Source: an uncultured Methanosarcinales archaeon (GTDB taxonomy: Archaea; Halobacteriota; Methanosarcinia; Methanotrichales; Methanotrichaceae). Taken from it: DNA of 64,000 nt. The stretch is from NCBI GenBank assembly GCA_963843555.1, contig CAWJKV010000016.1, positions 45,700-109,699 of the forward strand, written 5' to 3'. Position 1 is the stretch's first letter. The number at the start of each line of letters is the position of its first letter. This document shows, one piece after another, positions 1-45,799 of this stretch. A program made the translations under genes and the position numbers. Under the pieces are notes generated by a model. The model was given only the letters and a program-made list of their open reading frames with translations, was not told the DNA's origin and did not search any database.

Positions 1-1
1 T

Positions 2-1519
2 GTGATTCGAAAAGGCTCTCCGAATCAATCACCAGGAACGATTGTGGAAATAACTGGAAGGAAGAAACCAAGACTATTTGATGAGTACGTAGACAAGATA
101 AATTTAATTGATGTCGTCGATGCCTACGCATTGGCCTGCGAATTCCCAATAGAAGCCCATTGCCTGATTGATGAAATAGGGAATGACATTTCGATTCCTT
201 GCACAATTGTAATCCCAAAAACGGAAATTGAAATAGCTGGAATTAAGAATCAATTGAGCTTTGAGCAAGAATTTTTTGAGATCGATTCTAATTTGAGGGG
301 ATACGTTCGAGCTAGCTTCCTCCTAAATAATTTGGGCAAAATTGATTTAGCTAATTCTGAAGCACATTGGGATATAGGTAACTTTGGACCTTGTCTTGTG
401 CTGTCAAATGGCTTAAAAATAAAAGAATCATCAAGAAAGGGCGCAATTTGTTTGGATGGAATTTATGTGTGTGGCAATCCAGAGTATCGCAGCGAAAGAC
501 ATTTCATGAACTTCACAATTTGGAGCAATAATTATATCCCTCTCGAAGGAGATTATTATTTACTGGATGTAAGGGGCATTCTCAAACCACCCTTAACCAC
601 TTCGAGGGATCCTCCAAGAGATCCTCCTGAAGGGTCTCGTTGGGATCGACTTGCATGTATGGCAAATCTAGCAAGAGCCAGATTATGGGAGAAGGTAGCT
701 CAAACCATCGGAGATAGATTGGATATTGATACATTCTGGAAATTAGCTTTGATACATAGAGCCCCTATCCCATGGTTGCCCGCAAATACAGTATGGTCAA
801 AATTATCTGTTCCCATTGTCAAGAATAATGAATTTATAGAATGGAGAGAGGTCTCATCCCTAGGGAATTTATATGTGAGAAAAGATACATCATCAGAAAA
901 AGCAATATGCAGAGGGTTGTATCAAATTTTTACTGAAAACGGCTTGGAAATCAAAGCTTCGAAGGATTTAGCCAAATGGGAACACAAAGTCCGAATTCGT
1001 TATGGGTGCCTAAATGAACAATTATTCAATCTAATTATTAGCTTTTCCATAGTTAAAATACTGCAAGGAGATGCCTGCATTTATCTGTCTGAGCCGTTAC
1101 TAAATGAATCTCTGATTGTATATCGCATCAACTCAGTATTTTTGCTGCAATATGCAGGTGAGCTGGCCGAAGTTTTCACGGTTCAATTACCTTTTAAAAA
1201 TGCTAACCGCAATCATGCACTCGTTCGAACCGCATTCGATGCTAATTATGTAGAACATCTATCCGATATTCAAACATTTGCTCGTTCTTTGGTCCGATTC
1301 CTTGGTGATACGGATAATTTGAAAGCTCTAATGGATCCTGATGCATATAGCCACCCTGGGATTAATCGATGGATGCGTCATCTCGGCTACCAATACAATT
1401 CGATAGATTGGGAAAATTATGCTCCAGATCTTTCTCCTCCCTACAAGATTTGGCTGGGAGACCGAGGCATCTTTGAAATAACACATGATCATTTCGAAGC
1501 ATGGGCGTCTCTAAAATAA
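2..1519 (+). CDS. 5'-truncated large AT-rich protein; probable C-terminal part of an HSP90-like ATPase (HD-CE-associated) conflict/defence protein
   Basis: 505-codon ORF open at the window edge. N-terminal 'PGTIVEI' resembles the GHKL G2 box. Visibly more AT-rich than the core genes. Family assignment is tentative. Confidence 0.5.
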   Translation: MIRKGSPNQSPGTIVEITGRKKPRLFDEYVDKINLIDVVDAYALACEFPIEAHCLIDEIGNDISIPCTIVIPKTEIEIAGIKNQLSFEQEFFEIDSNLRGYVRASFLLNNLGKIDLANSEAHWDIGNFGPCLVLSNGLKIKESSRKGAICLDGIYVCGNPEYRSERHFMNFTIWSNNYIPLEGDYYLLDVRGILKPPLTTSRDPPRDPPEGSRWDRLACMANLARARLWEKVAQTIGDRLDIDTFWKLALIHRAPIPWLPANTVWSKLSVPIVKNNEFIEWREVSSLGNLYVRKDTSSEKAICRGLYQIFTENGLEIKASKDLAKWEHKVRIRYGCLNEQLFNLIISFSIVKILQGDACIYLSEPLLNESLIVYRINSVFLLQYAGELAEVFTVQLPFKNANRNHALVRTAFDANYVEHLSDIQTFARSLVRFLGDTDNLKALMDPDAYSHPGINRWMRHLGYQYNSIDWENYAPDLSPPYKIWLGDRGIFEITHDHFEAWASLK

Positions 1520-1630: not shown

Positions 1631-1857
1631 TCCTGCGGCCTCGGCCCAAAGGCAGCCATCCCTGCCAAGCGCCATCGGTGATATGCTCCCCGCGCGTATG
1701 CCCGTCCATACATGCACGCGGCCCGCCTGATTGCCCATCGACATGAGCCCGGACGACCCGGACCACAGGCGTCAGCAACGAGCGCAGCCCGGGGCAACGG
1801 CCGCAACCACTGTCGATGGCTGCCTGGGAGACTAACCATGCTCGCTGGATCGCAAAA
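1631..1857 (+). repeat. GC-rich array repeat R1 (left-arm type A)
   Basis: Core AACGAGCGCAGCC at 1777-1789, followed by CGGGGCAACGGCCGCAACC, GTCGATGGCTGCC and GGATCGCAAA. The left arm aligns with R3 and R8. Confidence 0.85.
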
Positions 1858-1925
1858 CTGGAGAATGCTTATGAATTGTCTCCAAAAAAATCTCAGCACA
1901 TCTGGATCACAAGATTTCATTTTGC

Positions 1926-2273
1926 CTATTTTGCAACCTGAGATCGGACAAATTCCATGAATTGACGCAAGCTTATGCCGGGATTATCATCCATATAGCT
2001 CTCCTCAACTGCATCCTGAGAACCGTTATGAAAGTGCTTGGGATAAGTCGATACACTCTGCCAGTTTGAATCTGGAAAATTGTCGTGACGTTACATGGAG
2101 CCATCGATGTGTCTTCTCTCCCAATGATAGGAAAACCGACCTGAGATTTTTAAGGAGAATCATATATCGATAAATGAGCCATCATCCACAAATGCTCTGA
2201 GCTTGCCGCGAGAAATGATGGAATCAGTCGAAATATCTGCATATTCTGTATCGATGATTCTCTTCAGCATCAT
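1926..2273 (-). pseudogene. DUF6516/TumE-like toxin, copy 1, with two in-frame stops
   Basis: Manual translation: MMLKRIIDTEYADI...GSFIDI*FSLKISGRFSYHWERRHIDGSM*RHDNFPD...YPKHFHNGS...FMEFVRSQVAK. Stops are TGA at 2160-2162 and TAA at 2091-2093. Confidence 0.7.
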
Positions 2274-2281
2274 TAGATCTG

Positions 2282-2566
2282 CTACTGTTGAGGAAGGTTC
2301 TTCATCGCGGCTAATAGCTCATCTCTTCTGGATTCCAGGTAGTCGAGCTCCTGAAAATCGTCCAGAGCATCCTCCCCCCTAACTTCTCCCTTTTTCAGCT
2401 TATCATCCAGCTCAAATATGGATCTCACACCATGCTTTGTCCTGATCTCGAATACCTCTGCTTCAATGCATCTCAGTTCTTTCTCCAAGAAGGCCTTGAT
2501 GCTAGCCCGAGCAAGAACGTCACGATCCATCTTCAGGGCACTTGCAACCTCATCGATAACTTCCAT
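2282..2566 (-). CDS. Putative antitoxin partner of the DUF6516 toxin, copy 1 (94 aa, MEVIDEV...)
   Basis: Small acidic helical protein immediately upstream of the DUF6516-like gene. Nearly identical to 6400-6681. Confidence 0.7.
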   Translation of the reverse strand: MEVIDEVASALKMDRDVLARASIKAFLEKELRCIEAEVFEIRTKHGVRSIFELDDKLKKGEVRGEDALDDFQELDYLESRRDELLAAMKNLPQQ

Positions 2567-2680
2567 GATCGAATACCATCCAATAAGACTGTCATTAAGA
2601 TATTTCAATCCTACCGTTTCTAAAATATGCGTGTATAGAGAAGGATGCCAGATTCCTACTCTCTGAAAGAGATGAACAAT

Positions 2681-2800
2681 TGGCCTCCAGCGCGCCCGAG
2701 CACGAGCGCCTTCCAGGCAAGCCAGTCCGCCCAAATGACATCGCAGCAAGCCCGGACGTTCCCGGACCACAGGCGGCGGCCACGAGCGCAGCCGGGCCGG
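2681..2800 (+). repeat. GC-rich array repeat R2 (left-arm type B, short right arm)
   Basis: GGCCTCCAGCGCGCCCGAGCACGAGCGCC...AAGCCCGGAC...GGCGGCGGCCACGAGCGCAGCC (core 2781-2793). Confidence 0.85.
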
Positions 2801-2883
2801 AGGCAAGGCAAGTGGAGGTTCGGTGTTTCTGTAACAGAAAAGATTTATTGATAGGACGACAAATAGTCAAATGAAGGCTGTCC

Positions 2884-3168
2884 ATGAGTTACGAAAAAAT
2901 CACTTACCGCCTTCATGCGGTTCAGAGGATGTTCGAGCGCAAGATCAGTGCAGAAGAGGTTCGGTACGTGCTGGAGACGGGAGAGGCGATTGAAGAATAT
3001 CCTGACGATACTCCATACCCAAGTTGCCTGATCCTTGGAAGCTACAAAGGTCGCCTCATCCATGTAGTAGCGGCAAATAATTTAATCGACGAGGAGAAGA
3101 TCGTAATCACAGTCTACGAGCCAGATCCTTCTGAATGGGACCCGGATTGTAGGGAGAGGATTTCATGA
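2884..3168 (+). CDS. DUF4258 family putative RelE-fold toxin
   Basis: HAVQRMFERKIS, IEEYPDDTPYPSCLILG, IHVV and IVITVYEPD..W motifs. ATGA overlap with the next gene. Confidence 0.9.
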   Translation: MSYEKITYRLHAVQRMFERKISAEEVRYVLETGEAIEEYPDDTPYPSCLILGSYKGRLIHVVAANNLIDEEKIVITVYEPDPSEWDPDCRERIS

Positions 3169-3392
3169 AATGCGTTATTTGCAGAAAAGCATCTACGAAG
3201 CCCGGCACAACAACAGTTACTTTTGAGCGTGGTTGCCTGACAATGGTGGTGAAATGCGTGCCCGCTCAAGTTTGCCCCAATTGTGGCGAAGCATACATAA
3301 GCGAGTTGGTTACGGCCGAGTTGCTCGATGATGCAGAAGAGCGAGCCAAGACTGGTGCCCAAGTGGAAATTCGACAATATGTGGCGGCCTGA
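3165..3392 (+). CDS. YgiT-type/MqsA-like zinc-finger antitoxin
   Basis: MKCVIC...VPAQVCPNCGEAY (two CxxC motifs), paired with DUF4258. Confidence 0.9.
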   Translation: MKCVICRKASTKPGTTTVTFERGCLTMVVKCVPAQVCPNCGEAYISELVTAELLDDAEERAKTGAQVEIRQYVAA

Positions 3393-3439
3393 TTTACTTT
3401 TATCGGACGGGCTGCCTGACGGCCCAATTGGTAACCGCC

Positions 3440-3600
3440 CACCTCATGGCAAGCTCCTGCGCGTGTATGTGCCAACCTTACGTGCATGGGTCCGCGCGCA
3501 GACCGACTTCACAGAAGCCCGGACAGCCCGGCCTCAGGCGACAGGCCACGAGTGCAGCCGCACCACCAACGGTCGATGGGCTGCCTGGCGCTGCTGCCAG
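3440..3600 (+). repeat. GC-rich array repeat R3 (left-arm type A)
   Basis: Core CACGAGTGCAGCC at 3547-3559, then GCACCACCAACGGTCGATGGGCTGCC..GCTGCTGCCAG. Confidence 0.85.
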
Positions 3601-3643
3601 TAATCGACAAGTATTGCTCAGTCGGAGATTCTTCTGAATGATT

Positions 3644-4087
3644 TTATTCCCGCCCATCAGTCCTTGAGGCGTTTTCCAACCATTTTTCAGGGCTTATCGC
3701 TAGCACTGATTTCGGACAGCGCTCTAACATCTCTTCATCCCACGAAATCAAAACGGCATCAAAATCCAGAGCAACAGCTGCATAAACAGCATCTGCACCA
3801 CGAAGGCGATTTTCAATAGCAATCTCTGCCGCACGAAGAGCGAGAGTCAGATCCAGAGGAACCTGTGTCATTCCAGGAAAATGCTTTATGAGATTGACCA
3901 GCCTCCCGGATAAAAGCGAGTCTCCGGTCGGCCTGGCAATAGCGGCCCCACACTCGGCAAGCACAAGAGTAGGGCAGAATATTTTTGCTCCTTTTACGCT
4001 ATGCAGGAAACGGTAGCTCCGAGGATATTGTTTTTCAGAAGGTCGGGCTGCAGATACAAAGACGCTGGCATCAATTGTCAGGTTCAT
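3644..4087 (-). CDS. vapC: VapC PIN-domain toxin
   Basis: MNLTIDASVFVS, LAEC, LRGADAVY and LISWD: the PIN acidic residues. ATGA overlap with the upstream antitoxin. Confidence 0.9.
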   Translation of the reverse strand: MNLTIDASVFVSAARPSEKQYPRSYRFLHSVKGAKIFCPTLVLAECGAAIARPTGDSLLSGRLVNLIKHFPGMTQVPLDLTLALRAAEIAIENRLRGADAVYAAVALDFDAVLISWDEEMLERCPKSVLAISPEKWLENASRTDGRE

Positions 4088-4341
4088 CTCCTCATCTCGG
4101 CAAGAATCTCCAAAGCGCTCTTCTTGCTCTTCCATGCCGAATCGATTTCATGGGCCAAAGCCAGCCACTCTGCATCCCAGTCAATTTCCTTTACCACATC
4201 CTCAGAGGATCTTAGTGGAACCAGTACAGCCATGGGTCTGCCCTCTGGGCCGATCAGAGTAGCTGTCTCACCTGGAGATAGTTTCGCTAGAATATCTTCA
4301 AGATTCTTTTTGGCCGAGTCTACAGAAACCTCTACCGACAT
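4084..4341 (-). CDS. Phd/YefM-like antitoxin
   Basis: SAKKNLEDIL...GETATL...GRPMAVLVP, a Phd-like pattern. Translationally coupled to vapC. Confidence 0.8.
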   Translation of the reverse strand: MSVEVSVDSAKKNLEDILAKLSPGETATLIGPEGRPMAVLVPLRSSEDVVKEIDWDAEWLALAHEIDSAWKSKKSALEILAEMRR

Positions 4342-4469
4342 GATTGACTCCTTCGTAATAATAATTTCATTTTCTTTGATTTATGTACAGCATGCTATTA
4401 AAAGTTAACCAAAAGCAAATCATCGTAGTCTGAGATCAATTGCATCGAAAGTCGCCAGGCCAAAACGGA

Positions 4470-4623
4470 CTCCCCCTGCTCTAGCACCTGTCAGGCAATC
4501 CAGCCCGCCGTGACGACTGTGCCGCTGGCCCGGCCCATAGGCGGTGGCCACGAGCGCAGCCGCACCACCAACGGTCGATGGGCTGCCCGACGCTGCTGCC
4601 AGCGGCCCGCAAGGATCGCAAAA
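4470..4623 (+). repeat. GC-rich array repeat R4 (left-arm type B)
   Basis: Core CACGAGCGCAGCC at 4549-4561. The right arm is shared with R3 and ends GCAAGGATCGCAAA. Confidence 0.85.
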
Positions 4624-4658
4624 GCTGTAGCTTGCAACAGATCGCTCTGCTAAAAAGT

Positions 4659-4698
4659 CTCTGTGAGTCCTCTGTGCGCTCTGTGTCTTTGTGGTGAA
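4659..4698. repeat. CTCTGTG micro-repeat (4 units)
   Basis: CTCTGTG-AGTC-CTCTGTG-CG-CTCTGTG-T-CTTTGTG-GTGAA. A degenerate counterpart occurs near 7780-7810. Confidence 0.75.
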
Positions 4699-4800
4699 AT
4701 TGTTAGTTGTTAAGTCATAATTATCGGCTAATATTAATAACAAACCAAATGCATTGCTTTACCAATCCTGCACCAGGATAACTGCTTTTTCAGTAGCAAG

Positions 4801-4876
4801 CACCACCTGGCCTCAGGCCCGACCGGCCTCCTGCCCGCCCGGACAGCAGCACAGCAAGCCAGGACGCCCCGGCCAA
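4801..4876 (+). repeat. Partial array repeat R5 (left arm B only)
   Basis: CACCTGGCCTCAGGCCCGACCGGCCTCCTGCCCGCCC...GCAAGCCAGGACG. Lacks the CACGAGCGCAGCC core. Confidence 0.7.
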
Positions 4877-4933
4877 CGGTTGGGGACAGAAAACCAGGAC
4901 ACTCTTGCGGGAACTGTCGACAGGCATTATTGT

Positions 4934-5440
4934 TCAATCCTCATTCTCGCTCGAAGTATGCAATGCCTTTTTGTATATTTCTTCGCCTATCCAGAAACCA
5001 GCGTCATTTCTCAACCTGTCGAGCTCCTCTTTGAGCGATGCTATTCTTCCCTCTCGCTTGGCCCTAATCAAGATACCTATCACGCCGGATATGTTCAATC
5101 CATACACTCCAGCCGTCTTTCTCGCCTCGCTTTCGTCCAAAAATACAACATCCGGATTCAGCTCGACTGCCAGAGCTATAGTCTCAGATTCGCCTTCATG
5201 TAGATCCCTTTGTAGAAAACAGATAAGAGGGCGATTTGCAGGTGCAACGACATCTATCCTTCCCAATTGTCGTCCCTCTTCTACCTCAGAGGAGCCGGGC
5301 CATTTCCGGCCTTCCTGAACTACCTCTCTCCAAACAGCCGGTGCTATGAGAATCTTTTTATGAAACTCGAAGAGAAGATACAAGCGTCCAATCTTTGCCA
5401 GATGTATTAGCGTTGAAGAATCACTGATTGCACCCGGCAT
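4934..5440 (-). CDS. DUF3368 PIN-like toxin
   Basis: ISDSSTLIHL, LHEGESETIALA, FLDESEAR and GVIGILIRAK motifs. Confidence 0.9.
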   Translation of the reverse strand: MPGAISDSSTLIHLAKIGRLYLLFEFHKKILIAPAVWREVVQEGRKWPGSSEVEEGRQLGRIDVVAPANRPLICFLQRDLHEGESETIALAVELNPDVVFLDESEARKTAGVYGLNISGVIGILIRAKREGRIASLKEELDRLRNDAGFWIGEEIYKKALHTSSENED

Positions 5441-5690
5441 ATTTTAAATCCTCTTCTAGCTCAGCTTCTCCATAGTGACGGTTAACCTTACGCTGGCCAA
5501 GAAGATCTTCGAACTGCAGACGCGTAAGGCCACTTAGGGCAGAGGCTTTTCCAGAGGATAGCATTCCTCGCTGGTAAAGCGCCAGAGCTAATTCTTTATA
5601 GAGTTCTGCTTCCACATCATCAGGTGGGACCCTAAGAGCATTTATTATCTCTTCAGGGATCTTTAAGGTTCGAGCGCTCATTTGATTCAT
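5421..5690 (-). CDS. UPF0175 family antitoxin
   Basis: ELALALYQRGMLSSGKASALSGLTRLQFEDLL...ELEEDL. Overlaps the DUF3368 gene. Confidence 0.9.
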   Translation of the reverse strand: MNQMSARTLKIPEEIINALRVPPDDVEAELYKELALALYQRGMLSSGKASALSGLTRLQFEDLLGQRKVNRHYGEAELEEDLKYAGCNQ

Positions 5691-5788
5691 GCTCCATTTC
5701 CATAATAATAGCAGAGATTATTAATTAAGCTTTGGCAGCAGAAGAGAATTCCGAGTTTTTAGAAGCTCTTGTGATATCTTATGAGCAA

Positions 5789-5971
5789 CCCGACCGGCCT
5801 TCTGCTCTCTCACGAGCGCTCATCAGGCAATCCAGCCGCCCAGACGACAACGCCGCAAGCCCAGACACTCGGACCACATGCGGCGGCCACGAGCACAGCC
5901 CGGGGCAACGGCCGCAACCAACGGTCGATGGCTGCCTGGCGAGACTAACCCATGCTCGCTGGATCGCAAAA
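5789..5971 (+). repeat. GC-rich array repeat R6 (left arm B, right arm as in R1)
   Basis: Core CACGAGCACAGCC at 5888-5900. Right arm nearly identical to R1. Confidence 0.85.
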
Positions 5972-6039
5972 CTGGAGAATGCTTATGAATTGTCTCCAAA
6001 AAAATCTCAGCGCATCTGGATCAACATGATTTCATTTGC

Positions 6040-6388
6040 CTATTTGGCAAGCTGAGATCGGACAAATTCCATGAAATGAACGTAAGCTTATGTCCGGATT
6101 ATCATCCATATAGCTCTCCTCAACTGCATCCTGAGAACCGCTATGGAAGTGCTTGGGATAAGTCGATACACTCTGCCAGTTTGAATCTGGAAAATTGTCG
6201 TGACGGTACATGGAGCCATCGATGTGTCTTCTCTCTCAATGATAGGAAAACCGACCTGAGATTTTTAAGGAGAACCATATATCGATAAATGAGCCATCAT
6301 CCACAAATGCTCTGAGCTTGCCGCGAGAAATGATGGAATCAGTCGAAATATCTGCATATTCTGTATCGATGATTCTCTTCAGCATCAT
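6040..6388 (-). pseudogene. DUF6516/TumE-like toxin, copy 2, with one in-frame stop and a 3' frameshift
   Basis: Trp-to-TGA at 6236-6238 (YH*ERRH). The two codons that are stops in copy 1 are sense here (TGG, TAC). One extra base near 6075-6080. Confidence 0.7.
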
Positions 6389-6399
6389 TAGATCTGCTA

Positions 6400-6681
6400 C
6401 TATTGAGGAAGGTTCTTCATCGCAGCTAATAGCTCATCTCTCCTTGATTCCAGGTAGTCGAGCTCCTGAAAATCGTCCAGAACATCCTCCTCCCTAACTT
6501 CTCCCTTTTTCAGCTTATCATCCAGCTCAAATATGGATCTCACACCATGCTTTGTCCTGATCTCGAATATCTCTGCTTCAATGCATCTCAGTTCTTTCTC
6601 CAAGAAGGCCTTGATGCTAGCCCGAGCAAGAACGTCACGATCCATCTTCAGGGCACTTGCAACCTCATCGATAACTTCCAT
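6400..6681 (-). CDS. Putative antitoxin, copy 2 (93 aa)
   Basis: Intact near-identical paralogue of 2282-2566. Confidence 0.7.
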   Translation of the reverse strand: MEVIDEVASALKMDRDVLARASIKAFLEKELRCIEAEIFEIRTKHGVRSIFELDDKLKKGEVREEDVLDDFQELDYLESRRDELLAAMKNLPQ

Positions 6682-6795
6682 GATCGAATACCATCCAATA
6701 AGACTGTCATTAAGATATTTCAATCCTACCGTTTCTAAAATATGCGTGTATAGAGACGGATGCCAGATTCCTACCCTCTGAAAGAGATGGACATT

Positions 6796-6978
6796 TGGCC
6801 TCCAGCGTGCCCGAGTACGAGCGCCTGCCAGGCAAGCCAGTCCGCCCAAATGACATCGCAGGAAGCCCGGACGGCCCTGCCCGAGGCGGCGGCCACGAGC
6901 GCAGCCCGGGCAACGGCCCAACCAAGGCCAGCGGCTGCCCCGGCGCTGCTGCGCCAGCGGGCCGCAAGGATCGCAAAA
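6796..6978 (+). repeat. GC-rich array repeat R7 (left arm as in R2, full right arm)
   Basis: Core CACGAGCGCAGCC at 6894-6906. Ends GCAAGGATCGCAAA. Confidence 0.85.
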
Positions 6979-7016
6979 CATTTGATTTGGCAAAATCGAA
7001 ATATATCATCCAACTT

Positions 7017-7232
7017 TTACACGCTTACCTCTACAGAAGCCGCCGTGGTAGTTGGTTCAGGTATGCTTAGAGACGCTTCCTTTAGCCCTTCCAGGTGGAA
7101 CTCTATTGCCTCTTTCATCAACTCTAGCGTCTCCTTTCTAGTTGGACCGGTTGCTATGACACCTGGCAAATCCGGACAATAGGCGGCGTAATTATTTTCA
7201 GCTTTTTCAATAATGATCAGATACTCAGTCAT
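7017..7232 (-). CDS. hicB: HicB family antitoxin
   Basis: YAAYCPDLPGVIATGPTRKETLELMKEAIEFHLEGL...IPEP. Confidence 0.92.
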   Translation of the reverse strand: MTEYLIIIEKAENNYAAYCPDLPGVIATGPTRKETLELMKEAIEFHLEGLKEASLSIPEPTTTAASVEVSV

Positions 7233-7443
7233 CTTTTCCGACCTCCTTGATACCGCTTTGTCTTAAAATGCTATTCAAGGTACCCTTTGGTACTTCATCA
7301 TCCAAATTCCCTGAGATGGTCACCAATCCACTCTTGAAATGATGCTTGTACTGTCTGTGACTGCCTCTGGTTCTATCAAGGAACCATCCATCCTCTTCTA
7401 CTAGCTTGATGACGGCTCGGACTTTCAAATTGTTAGCCCTCAT
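7225..7443 (-). CDS. hicA: HicA family toxin
   Basis: EDGWFLDRTRGSHRQYKH...VPKGTLNSILRQSG. Confidence 0.92.
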   Translation of the reverse strand: MRANNLKVRAVIKLVEEDGWFLDRTRGSHRQYKHHFKSGLVTISGNLDDEVPKGTLNSILRQSGIKEVGKDD

Positions 7444-7506
7444 TGAGATATTTAACCAATCATAATAGCCTCTCTAGACATATAATTGATTTGCCGCGTG
7501 GCAAAT

Positions 7507-7746
7507 CCTGGCGCCCTCGATCTATTGGCAGCCCACGTCCGCGCCGCGTTACCTTCGATGGCATGCTCCCGCGCATGGGTACCCGCTCGTGCGCACACGC
7601 GAGCCCGCCCGGATGGCAGCGCAGCAAGCCCGGCTGGCCAGGCCCGCTGGACTGCGGCGGCCACGAGCGCAGCCCGGGGCAACGGCCGCAATCGCAGTCG
7701 ATGGGCTGCCCGGTGCTGCTGCCAGGAGCCCGCAAGGATCGCAAAG
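7507..7746 (+). repeat. GC-rich array repeat R8 (longest; left arm A)
   Basis: Core at 7662-7674. Left arm aligns with R1 and R3; right arm ends CCCGCAAGGATCGCAAA. Confidence 0.85.
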
Positions 7747-7897
7747 CCGGAGGCCCCTTGATTGCTCCAAGGAGTCTCAAGTCTCTGCCTCTGTGTTCGG
7801 CCTGTGTTAATTGATATAATTATCTGACAATAATACTAAATCATAATCTCTTTCCAAAATCCGGTCTGCTGAATTGCCTCCCACCAGAGGCTTTCGT

Positions 7898-7919
7898 CAC
7901 CTGGCCCCAGTCCCGACCG
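7898..7919 (+). repeat. Vestigial array repeat R9 (start of left arm B)
   Basis: CACCTGGCCCCAGTCCCGACCG, compared with CACCTGGCCTCAGGCCCGACCG in R5. Confidence 0.55.
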
Positions 7920-7974
7920 AGGAATTGCGAGCTAAAAGCTATATCCCATCACTGACAATAACTTCAAAGCGGCA

Positions 7975-8205
7975 ATGGATAAAGCGGTCTATGAGATCAT
8001 TGACGATCCAGAGCCCTTTTATGGCGAGATACCGGAGCTTCAGGGTGTCTGGGCTTCAGGAAAGACATTGGAGGCCTGCCGTGACACCCTCATGAGCGCC
8101 CAGGAAGACTGGATTGCCTTCCGCCTTAGAACGGGACGGTCCATTCCGCCGATAGGTGGAGCTTCAATCGCAGTTTCATTGGAGCCGGTGAGCGTTGTTG
8201 AATAA
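7975..8205 (+). CDS. hicB: HicB family antitoxin (N-terminus probably eroded)
   Basis: FYGEIPELQGVWASGKTLEACRDTLMSAQEDWI...IPPI. Confidence 0.8.
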   Translation: MDKAVYEIIDDPEPFYGEIPELQGVWASGKTLEACRDTLMSAQEDWIAFRLRTGRSIPPIGGASIAVSLEPVSVVE

Positions 8206-8220
8206 GCTCACTCCTGTCTT
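8198..8220 (+). pseudogene. Possible N-terminal stub of a HicA toxin (MNKLTPV...)
   Basis: TTG start overlapping the end of hicB. Resembles the HicA N-terminus but is cut off after about 7 codons. Confidence 0.4.
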
Positions 8221-12828: not shown

Positions 12829-12905
12829 CCGAAGAACGACATCGCCTTATGGAGAATCTGTTACGATTAGAATCTATTATGATTAAATGATAGAAAAAGC
12901 CAAAA

Positions 12906-12994
12906 AGCCGCCGATGGGATTCGAACCCATGAACTGCTGATCTTTCGGACTATCTTACGAATCAGCCGCTTTAACCGGGCTAAGCCACGGCGGC
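12906..12994 (-). tRNA. tRNA-Thr(CGT) with a 14-nt intron (12942-12955) at position 37/38
   Basis: Acceptor stem GCCGCCG/CGGCGGC, anticodon stem GCTGA/TCAGC, loop TTCGTA|intron|A, T-arm ATGGG-TTCGAAT-CCCAT. The TTCG/CGAA helix flanked by 3-nt bulges forms a BHB motif. Confidence 0.95.
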
Positions 12995-13029
12995 CCTCAA
13001 AGTCTCTACTAGCAAATGCAGATGCCAAT

Positions 13030-42642: not shown

Positions 42643-43251
42643 TCAGGACTTATCTCCTGCAAGGAATCCGGGCAACTTAGACCGCATATACGCCTCGCGG
42701 CGGTGGTTGGGACTGACTTTGAGGTATATGCTCGTTGTGGCCAGGGACGCATGCCCTAGCTGGTCCTGCACGTCGCCCACAGGTAACGCCGCTATCCAGG
42801 CTCCAGACGGCGAAGCTATGCCTGAGCATGTGATGGTGGACTCGATGTCTGTTCTTGCCTGCCTTGTCCTGACGCTTGACCTCTTGCAGACCAGCTCTGG
42901 TAGCTATGCCATCGAGGATATTCTGGGCCTGTCGGGAAGTGATGTGGCTATCTCGATAGCTCTGGAACAGCCAGCCCTTAGAACGCCCTCCGAGCAGCTT
43001 TGATATGGCCTCGGCGACCTGGGGGAGAAGAACCACCGTGCGCGCCTTTTTGAACTTGGCATTGATGACGGGGACATGCAGATACCCTTTGCTGAAATCT
43101 ACATCTTCGGCTCTGATCTGGGTCATCTCACTCACACGTAGGCCAGCTCCAGCCAGAAGGAGCAGTATACATCGCTCTCTCGTTCGTCCTGGGAGGACTT
43201 GAGCAAGGCGTTGAACTCTGCATGGGTGAGATGAGAAAAGGAAGACCTCAT
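42643..43251 (-). CDS. Tyrosine recombinase, catalytic domain only (two frameshifts)
   Basis: Reconstructed: MRSSFSHLTHAEFNALL...GLRVSEM...AKFKKAR...HMLRHSFA...QLGHASLATTSIY, giving the R-K-H-R-H-Y catalytic set. Confidence 0.88.
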
Positions 43252-43463
43252 TACTTTTAAGCGTACGTGGTCGTCGTGCCAATGTATATGCAATGTTAGT
43301 ATTATGGCCTAGAACTACTTGCTTCTTTTCAAGCAGAAGTCTAAGATGTTTATAATTGGGTAAAAATTTCAGGCTGTCATCACCACATTATCAACGAGAT
43401 TAGCATTAGGTCTCCCAACACCTTTATTAATCAAGTTACCATTTCCAGAAGGAGGCTTGAATT

Positions 43464-45430: not shown

Positions 45431-45799
45431 ATGACGGATATATTTCTATTCGCCTCCCATGAGGCATCTTATGACATGCAACTCCTACTGCCAGAACCGA
45501 GGACTTCCAGCAGTATGGCTTCATCCACATGGACATGGGCCACCTGGGCTGGGCTCGAATTTGCACGAGCGCATCGCGGGCGCGAGCGGCAACTGGCACT
45601 GGCTGCGACCACCAATCACCTTAATGATGGCCTGTTCCGCCCCGAACCCGACTCAATGCCGGGCGGGGACACAAACAAAGCACCGGAATTCACGCAGTGT
45701 CTGTCTTACGGGAACCCGTATCACCGCCAGATGCAGGGCCGTTTGATCGCTCTGCCTTGGCTTTGGACACCTGTACAAGGCCGGACCTTCAGACTTGAC

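Follow-up and report, generated by a model that had tools for sequence, protein, structure and literature searches.

BIME and REPIN elements are mosaic tandem repeats of intergenic regions, with short inverted doublets and an accompanying RAYT, and pdif modules carry toxin-antitoxin (TA) cargo between repeated sites. Both have features in common with an array that we describe here from an uncultured Methanosarcinales archaeon of the family Methanotrichaceae (GenBank assembly GCA_963843555.1, 2.68 Mb, 82% complete). The stretch analysed, hereafter the window, is the 64,000 nucleotides (nt) at positions 45,700 to 109,699 of contig CAWJKV010000016.1; its positions 1635-7926 hold nine same-strand (+) repeat pieces between six TA pairs and a seventh, truncated pair. 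Such arrays, which we call Methanothrix arrays after their Methanothrix-like host, represent a genus-wide and apparently undescribed variant of repeat-mediated module shuffling, set in an archaeal chromosome, specialised in TA pairs and running in parallel repeat families. They share mosaic tandem repeats and inverted doublets with BIME and REPIN elements but have no RAYT over cut-off; they share TA cargo between repeated sites with pdif modules, but their AT-rich segment lies off the cassette borders and most repeats between cassettes in the window lack it, and dif-like 11-6-11 sites were not found at module borders (the AT-rich segment was judged by eye). CRISPR arrays consist of short, near-identical repeats and short spacers, which the size, identity and intervals of these repeats do not fit (no CRISPR finder was applied).

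The nearest analogues are phage PeSL cassettes and the NIME arrays of Neisseria. The PeSL cassettes of the T4-like phages RB49 and phi1 place repeats between small accessory genes, and repeat recombination shuffles the modules; the sections of the report that treat them describe mini-circles as products, name no dedicated recombinase, and define the repeats as promoter and terminator motifs in phage genomes (PMC2839356). The Methanothrix unit, in contrast, is about 360 nt long, GC-rich and unfolded, lies in an archaeal chromosome, separates TA pairs that run in either direction and belongs to one of several families; circles have been demonstrated for PeSL (PMC2839356), and none was observed for the Methanothrix arrays in contigs of related populations. 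The NIME (dRS3/RS) arrays and minimal mobile elements of Neisseria are also mosaic, dynamic intergenic arrays at syntenic sites with alternative cargo per locus, and the pertinent sections of the report propose that they promote exchange with incoming DNA and describe them as numerous, based on a 20-bp inverted repeat and mainly flanking resident genes (PMC1797815). The Methanothrix array differs in enclosing whole gene pairs with their own junctions, and no short fixed site was found in it; the 20-bp dRS3 inverted repeat is not evident in our repeat alignment, no pattern search having been made for it.

Integrons and CALINs, including archaeal ones, offer an oriented, TA-rich array of shuffled order drawing on a shared cassette pool, as described in the main text of PMC9668308, which makes no mention of Methanothrix, Methanosaeta, Methanotrich- or Methanosarcin- (its supplements lay outside this check). 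Methanothrix arrays differ from them in lacking IntI above cut-off, attC boxes or hairpin, and a fixed crossover, and in having cargo-free tandem runs and large overlapping duplications around cassettes. The TA clusters in small chromosomal spots of Photorhabdus resemble them in clustering, in repeated gain at one place and in decay through toxin loss; those clusters associate with transposases and integrases, and the sections describing them mention no separating repeat family (PMC13617665). By the tests applied, the arrays are outside the integron, CRISPR, pdif and RAYT-REP families, and we found no description of such arrays in the literature, of which subscription papers were mostly beyond the reach of the search.

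The array of the window and its repeat unit

The array comprises the following features, with positions in the window and, for repeat pieces, in the model of the unit.

1..1519, +: 3' half of an AT-rich HD-CE gene of 1032 aa (PF24391, 1.8e-55), starting upstream of the window and heading the array; a probable defence gene
1635..1881, +: R1, repeat piece, model 25-273 (profile E 1.9e-29)
1882..2676, -: cassette 1, antitoxin-like gene (2282-2569) and TumE-like toxin (about 1926-2280) with two in-frame stops
2677..2831, +: R2, model 66-224 (repeat profile)
2832..3501, +: cassette 2, DUF4258 (2884-3168) and MqsA/YgiT-like (3165-3392) genes (Pfam)
3400-3500: variant repeat module inside the interval of cassette 2
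3502..3639, +: R3, model 120-267 (repeat profile)
3640..4412, -: cassette 3, Phd (4084-4341) and VapC/PIN (3644-4087) genes (Pfam)
4413..4879, +: R4 and R4b, a nearly full unit (model 19-361) and then the start of the next (model 8-157), head-to-tail
4880..5788, -: cassette 4, UPF0175 (5421-5690) and DUF3368 (4934-5440) genes (Pfam)
5789..5995, +: R5, model 64-273 (repeat profile)
5996..6792, -: cassette 5, a second copy of cassette 1, 96.9% identical
6793..6980, +: R6, model 67-251 (repeat profile)
6981..7559, -: cassette 6, HicA (7225-7443) and HicB (7017-7232) genes (Pfam)
7560..7926, +: R7, model 74-360, followed by a weak start of a next unit at 7852-7926 (E 0.2)
7975..8220, +: cassette 7, truncated, a HicB-like UPF0150 gene (7975-8205) and a few codons of its HicA partner; end of the array

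An earlier note on this DNA, made from the letters alone, had located these repeats and genes correctly, and the profile and Pfam searches recover its repeat cores, all on the + strand. Where it saw a short core, the window contains pieces of 116-340 nt from a mosaic unit of about 360 nt. Copies are about 70% identical, and the intervals that carry genes measure 580-910 nt. The GC content of the repeats is 0.54-0.72 and that of the cargo 0.43-0.50, so that the GC-rich repeats of the note stand and its AT-rich modules are only mildly so. Pfam likewise bears out its DUF4258/YgiT, Phd/VapC, UPF0175/DUF3368 and HicAB modules; the toxin that it called DUF6516-like is instead TumE-like, as an intact homologue in a relative matches PF20126. 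Both copies of this toxin in the window are broken by different nonsense changes, that of cassette 5 having one stop, at a codon differing from those of cassette 1, and a late frameshift. The duplicated stretch that holds them (about 1745-2792 and 5855-6905) has both ends within the repeat core. The last pair had been read as HicB with a stub, and the stub (about 8195-8220) indeed resembles the first codons of the HicA found after the same HicB in relatives.

Within the unit, conserved blocks reach 0.74-0.80 identity, against about 0.55 in adjoining parts, and the longest exact matches between neighbouring repeats of the window are 8-32 nt. R4 includes a triple CTCTGTG-type short repeat and the AT-rich segment (model about 315-350), which is weakly palindromic, contains a TATA-like hexamer and occurs in the window in R4 and R7 only, judged by eye to be away from cargo borders. 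One full unit (4400-4760, + strand) folds no better than its shuffles (z 0.09), the alignment of 32 copies has no consensus base pairs, and Rfam gives just three weak matches, all under the gathering score. Origin as a coding remnant was rejected: reading frames break freely over the 32 copies, and tblastx returned no parent gene, just short-repeat sites and one degenerate copy at C2:221.4k. Uptake-like words were discarded too, six 7-mers having observed/expected ratios of 0.88-1.23 and hence no over-representation, as were alternating purine-pyrimidine tracts, whose four occurrences in arrays against 0.74 expected are too few to use. A scan with bacterial site models, the host being archaeal, gave nine promoter-like (7.2 expected) and three terminator-like sites (6.2 expected).

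The GC-rich part of the repeat is not genome-wide; in this genome it forms two arrays plus fragments. A profile built from the intergenic segments of the window had 14 matches in the assembly at E<=10, nine in the window array (eight at E<=1.5e-8, and the piece near 7890 at E 0.24), four in a second array on contig C11 and one on C2. With a profile from 32 copies, 55 matches were found at E<=1, of which 19 touch the GC-rich part (nine in the window array, eight in the C11 array, one on C2 and one at E 0.96) and the other 36 consist of the triple short repeat near the unit end alone; the degenerate copy at C2:221.4k, missed by this profile, is additional. The short repeat itself has 74 matches by pattern search, clustered and often in inverted doublets. 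The second array of this family (C11:46870-52010) lies behind an AT-rich gene of 1098 aa and carries RelE-like, MNT-HepT, AF2212/PIN and HEPN-like pairs.

Cassettes across the genus

Beyond this genome, 46 of the 58 others in the (Methanothrix-like) genus matched one full unit, as did, weakly, two of 46 from other genera of the family; the whole array matched 26 of 41 genomes, in part via its genes. A search of 61 genomes from another family of the class gave no match, but it had no positive control and is uninformative. The consensus pattern found six stretches in named genomes, of Methanothrix sp. (four), Methanotrichaceae (one) and Methanosarcinales (one), and neither of two exact patterns matched any viral contig. 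We compared 63 stretches, namely the first 12 kb of the window and 62 loci picked by repeat or cassette match, a set therefore biased to arrays. They contain 451 repeat matches and 173 inserts at 48 loci in 28 genomes. Repeat runs of at least 600 nt free of cargo, head-to-tail and up to 1175 nt long, make up 27 of 288 blocks (18 genomes), and solo copies are present at several loci.

Across the genus, cassettes have a fixed orientation and changing neighbours, order, copy number and genomic site. Eighteen cassette types, nearly all TA pairs or TA-like small genes, occur in at least three genomes each, some in up to 11. All 355 strict same-type pairs point the same way with respect to the repeat (18 of 1180 directed matches are opposite when the threshold is relaxed), and only eight of 71 distinct adjacencies recur, each in two genomes. 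The array of the window adjoins leuS, whose 3' end is present in 13 of 14 loci tested since they appeared linked to it. At this orthologous site the order of cassette types is 3-0-15-13-3-1 in the window and, for example, 7-5-19-2-6, 14-8-0-2-4-1 or 5-15-6 elsewhere; arrays are also found beside ilvC, rpl15e and other genes. At the leuS site, many arrays begin with a large AT-rich gene of defence type, which differs from genome to genome. Those seen in this slot, in L016, L018, L038, L048, L019, L041, L046, L036 and L043, are Gabija (GajAB), SIR2 or SIR2-STAND, NACHT or RelA-like genes, and a GmrSD gene lies directly ahead of leuS in L036.

The earlier note had proposed a gene-capture platform, and had named two signs against it: a repeat scattered genome-wide, and identical cassettes and order in relatives. 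The GC-rich part is instead confined to two arrays and fragments, and relatives hold other sets in other orders at the orthologous leuS site. Repeat-bounded gain and shuffling of TA cassettes are thus borne out; what the evidence shows is the reshuffling and spread of existing cassettes, not the first capture of a new gene.

Junctions are type-specific. The exit position x, where a cassette leaves the repeat, and the earlier entry position y, where the repeat resumes, are particular to each type; entry precedes exit in 154 of 173 inserts, so that a cassette is usually flanked by two direct copies of one repeat segment, y..x. We infer that these overlapping flanks are the footprint of single-crossover circle integration or of unequal crossover. 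Junctions depend on type, with a mean deviation of 28.6 against 44.5 for exits and 30.4 against 42.9 for entries, and none of 2000 permutations reached either observed value (related genomes not being independent). The cargo of a given cassette type averages 89% identity, and repeats flanking the same cassette in different genomes are 0.67-0.73 identical over their first 100 nt, against 0.61-0.71 for different cassettes. In 67 cassette pairs at >=94% identity, with 30 usable breakpoints upstream and 35 downstream, shared sequence reaches into the repeat by 42 nt upstream and 59 nt downstream (medians), and breakpoints spread over 13 different 20-nt bins per side. The repeat has no single crossover site, though it may have a preferred block. 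The integron-like picture of one fixed site per cassette, also held by the note, gives way to these type-specific junctions and dispersed exchange points, to the cargo-free runs and to further repeat families with the same layout.

Public sequencing runs were searched as well, and none contains half of the array words. In contigs from four runs, at 88% likeness, joints between window repeats were found, among them 2757 to 3535, 3489 to 4546, 7567 back to 2727 and 3514 back to 2761; their sides measure 25-113 nt and are frequently separated by additional letters. These fit other cassette orders in related populations; they show no circles, and we do not use them as support.

The same footprint without this repeat

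The footprint also occurs where the flanking copies are gene ends. Just upstream of the window, leuS is followed by a ParE-type pair (L002:14190-14975) and then by a second copy of its own 3' end, 197 bp long and 88% identical. Beyond this copy comes DNA that follows the intact leuS in three of 11 relatives, matching over about 300 nt in two of them and over 25 nt in the third; none of the 11 matches the DNA that now comes after leuS. An incoming circle that displaced the original end would account for this layout. A third leuS-end remnant, of 31 bp, is seen at L002:15847, and extra leuS-end copies are also present in L018, L023, L036, L038, L043, L046 and L051; the short repeat is located within small leuS-end duplications of four relatives. 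Similarly, alaS is followed by a DUF433/DUF5615 pair (C5:58450-59602) and then by a copy of its own 3' end, 144 bp long and 94% identical.

Four further repeat families (B-E) flank TA modules in this genome. B has the short repeat in common with the family of the window (A), and C a single 44-nt match; otherwise no common sequence appeared among the families compared. Family C modules occur in permuted order in four genomes (G102, G019, G100 and G092). In this genome family C (C11:20650-29600) separates ParE, MNT-HepT, PBECR2, PIN/AF2212 and HicAB modules behind a PDC-M19 defence pair. Family B (C9:77800-85100; C6:98900-101400) is rich in inverted short-repeat doublets and carries PIN, acylphosphatase-like, HicB-like and DUF2283/DUF4258 modules, one cassette being tandemly duplicated. 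Families D and E (C5:205550-207550; C3:108450-110750) surround HicAB, PIN and DUF3368 modules, and a D-like piece also follows leuS in this genome, L023 and L051. At C10:25508-28056, a 338-bp, 95% identical direct repeat takes in the beginning of a mutS-like gene and borders small antitoxin-like genes.

Movement of the cassettes and its meaning

Enzymes of known array systems do not recur with these arrays. The attC box motif is RYYYAAC..GTTRRRY; between 1501 and 8300 its sole pair per strand lies at 7008-7147, across hicB and outside the repeats, and no IntI (TIGR02249) exceeded the cut-off in five genomes, the best match scoring 47 against 265 bits, although a CALIN needs none and this genome is 82% complete. 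In five genomes no reverse transcriptase (PF00078; controls positive in three of 14) was found, nor any RAYT (NF047646) over cut-off, weak matches coinciding with IS200-like Y1 genes. The IS91/ISCR Y2 transposase (PF04986) was likewise found in none of five, nor in any control. IS110 is present in three of five; two array-rich genomes of 96-99% completeness gave no match. In scans of flanking proteins (111 in one set; in another, 53 of 166 cluster representatives, the rest partly covered by the first or omitted) no recombinase, reverse transcriptase or RAYT gene recurs beside arrays, and transposase genes of several families are sporadic there. This genome has three tyrosine-recombinase matches, the nearest about 35 kb from the array. 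An open reading frame of this kind, of 201 aa, lies at window 42677-43282 (PF00589, 1.1e-22), its tail apparently frameshifted. Elsewhere in the window, ARAGORN places a tRNA with a four-base anticodon loop at 12905-12995 (- strand), possibly intron-containing or miscalled. GxxExxY genes (PF13366) occur in three of five genomes searched (G012, G024 and G093; L076-L080), with the triple short repeat on their flanks, often as inverted doublets; searches of G085 and of this genome, which is 82% complete, gave none.

We suggest, with a probability of roughly 55%, that the array is a homology-driven cassette-exchange platform that uses host machinery; the architecture and the shuffling are observed, and from them we infer the circles, the enzymology, a route between species and any benefit. 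Any two repeat copies on the same strand could recombine and so excise the cassette as a small circle of cargo plus one repeat segment, delete it or duplicate it. Circles, or linear DNA with repeats at both ends, could then recombine into any other copy, including those of other species, and crossovers anywhere in the shared segment would yield mosaic repeats. RadA-type strand exchange or single-strand annealing would suffice, and since such general host machinery would be enough, no linked integrase would be needed. Each repeat family would form a separate exchange pool. TA pairs may dominate because addiction resists deletion between direct repeats, with toxins decaying later, as the two TumE-like copies have done. 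The stretch from the leuS end to the first repeat, at the array head, is probably where large defence genes replace one another, and a new cassette would probably be captured first through a rare illegitimate joining event. We favour this platform because entry precedes exit, junctions are type-specific, orientation is fixed, adjacencies rarely recur, breakpoints are dispersed and the duplication in the window has its ends in the repeat core, and because the same footprint appears at the leuS and alaS ends and in family C while no recombinase recurs at arrays. The mini-circles of PeSL cassettes are a precedent for the mechanism (PMC2839356).

Several observations weigh against this platform. 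Its main weakness is that copies about 70% identical, with exact matches of 8-32 nt, are short for classical homologous recombination, in a genome that presumably encodes MutS, as assigned from sequence. Repeat copies within a genome are hardly more alike than copies in different genomes, which points to little homogenisation; 19 of 173 inserts do not show entry before exit; and no circle was observed in contigs of related populations. Direct repeats within 700 nt flank just 21 of 111 TA-like loci, against six of 300 random sites, an indicative comparison only, as its noisy query set includes non-TA matches such as TPR proteins. Of the 35 downstream breakpoints, 15 lie in the best conserved block (model 60-99) and could mark a preferred site, in a test that does not distinguish crossovers from later mutation.

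This peak of breakpoints, like the high identity of the conserved blocks, would be expected of a dedicated enzyme acting in trans. It could be a relaxed-specificity tyrosine recombinase, or else a nickase or nuclease initiating recombination, whether in a conserved block (model 60-80 or 135-180) or in the short-repeat doublet. Such an enzyme would ease the difficulty that low overall repeat identity poses for unaided recombination. Further points in its favour are the three tyrosine-recombinase matches, the short repeats that flank GxxExxY nuclease-fold genes in three of five genomes and, as the pertinent sections of one report describe, the archaeal pTN3 integrase, which recombines homologous segments down to 104 bp (PMC8371274). 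We nevertheless consider a dedicated enzyme unlikely, as no such gene recurs at arrays, the nearest recombinase here is distant and GxxExxY was not found in two genomes, and five repeat families and two coding-gene ends share the footprint, mostly without common sequence and with dispersed breakpoints. Its boldest form, which we regard as speculative and improbable to a similar degree, is an undescribed, actively catalysed cassette system in which an unlinked enzyme recombines long, about 70% identical, unfolded repeats and gene 3' ends, circularising and reinserting TA and defence modules; the repeat families would be parallel, mutually exclusive channels between species, and the whole an equivalent of the integron without IntI or a hairpin site. 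The repeat could alternatively be a selfish, non-autonomous, tandem-amplifying element of the BIME, REPIN or NIME kind, with TA genes as a neutral sink and shuffling as a by-product of no benefit to the host. Cargo-free runs, solo copies, a mosaic unit, the 74 short-repeat matches with their inverted doublets and their presence in leuS-end duplications of four relatives all speak for it, as does toxin decay. It can be reconciled with the exchange platform, from which it differs on repeat origin and on benefit; as a rival we hold it to be doubtful, as neither RAYT over cut-off nor reverse transcriptase was found in five genomes, nor IS110 in two array-rich ones, the GC-rich part is not dispersed, and the cargo is strongly biased to TA or small defence-type genes whose types recur in up to 11 genomes.

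Two further explanations fare worse. An atypical integron or CALIN with highly degenerate attC sites would account for the shared orientation of the repeats, the single cassette in each interval, the wealth of TA cargo and the shuffled order, and archaeal CALINs with TA cassettes are described in the main text of PMC9668308; this reading is largely refuted, and very improbable, given no IntI over cut-off, no R boxes or fold in the repeats and no single crossover point. An assembly artefact or chance might be suspected in an 82% complete assembly, as repeats often break contigs and several arrays stop at contig ends, yet it is the least credible account of all: the architecture occurs in 28 genomes, including the single-contig genome G019, repeat copies differ, and the lesions in the two duplicated cassettes are not the same.

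It is not yet settled how TA and defence modules come together, travel and change order in chromosomes where no integrase is linked to them. In Methanothrix, a major methanogen that uses acetate in wetlands and digesters, the process can be traced: the genus shares a pool of at least 18 cassette types with fixed orientation and type-specific junctions, has orthologous hotspots at leuS, ilvC and rpl15e, and includes a genome with several repeat families. The exchange platform predicts circle junctions, dispersed crossovers, dependence on general recombination and no exchange between families. The outcome looks like the integron's job done without the integron's enzyme or recombination site. Searches keyed to attC or to an integrase would overlook such arrays, which may therefore be commoner than is known.

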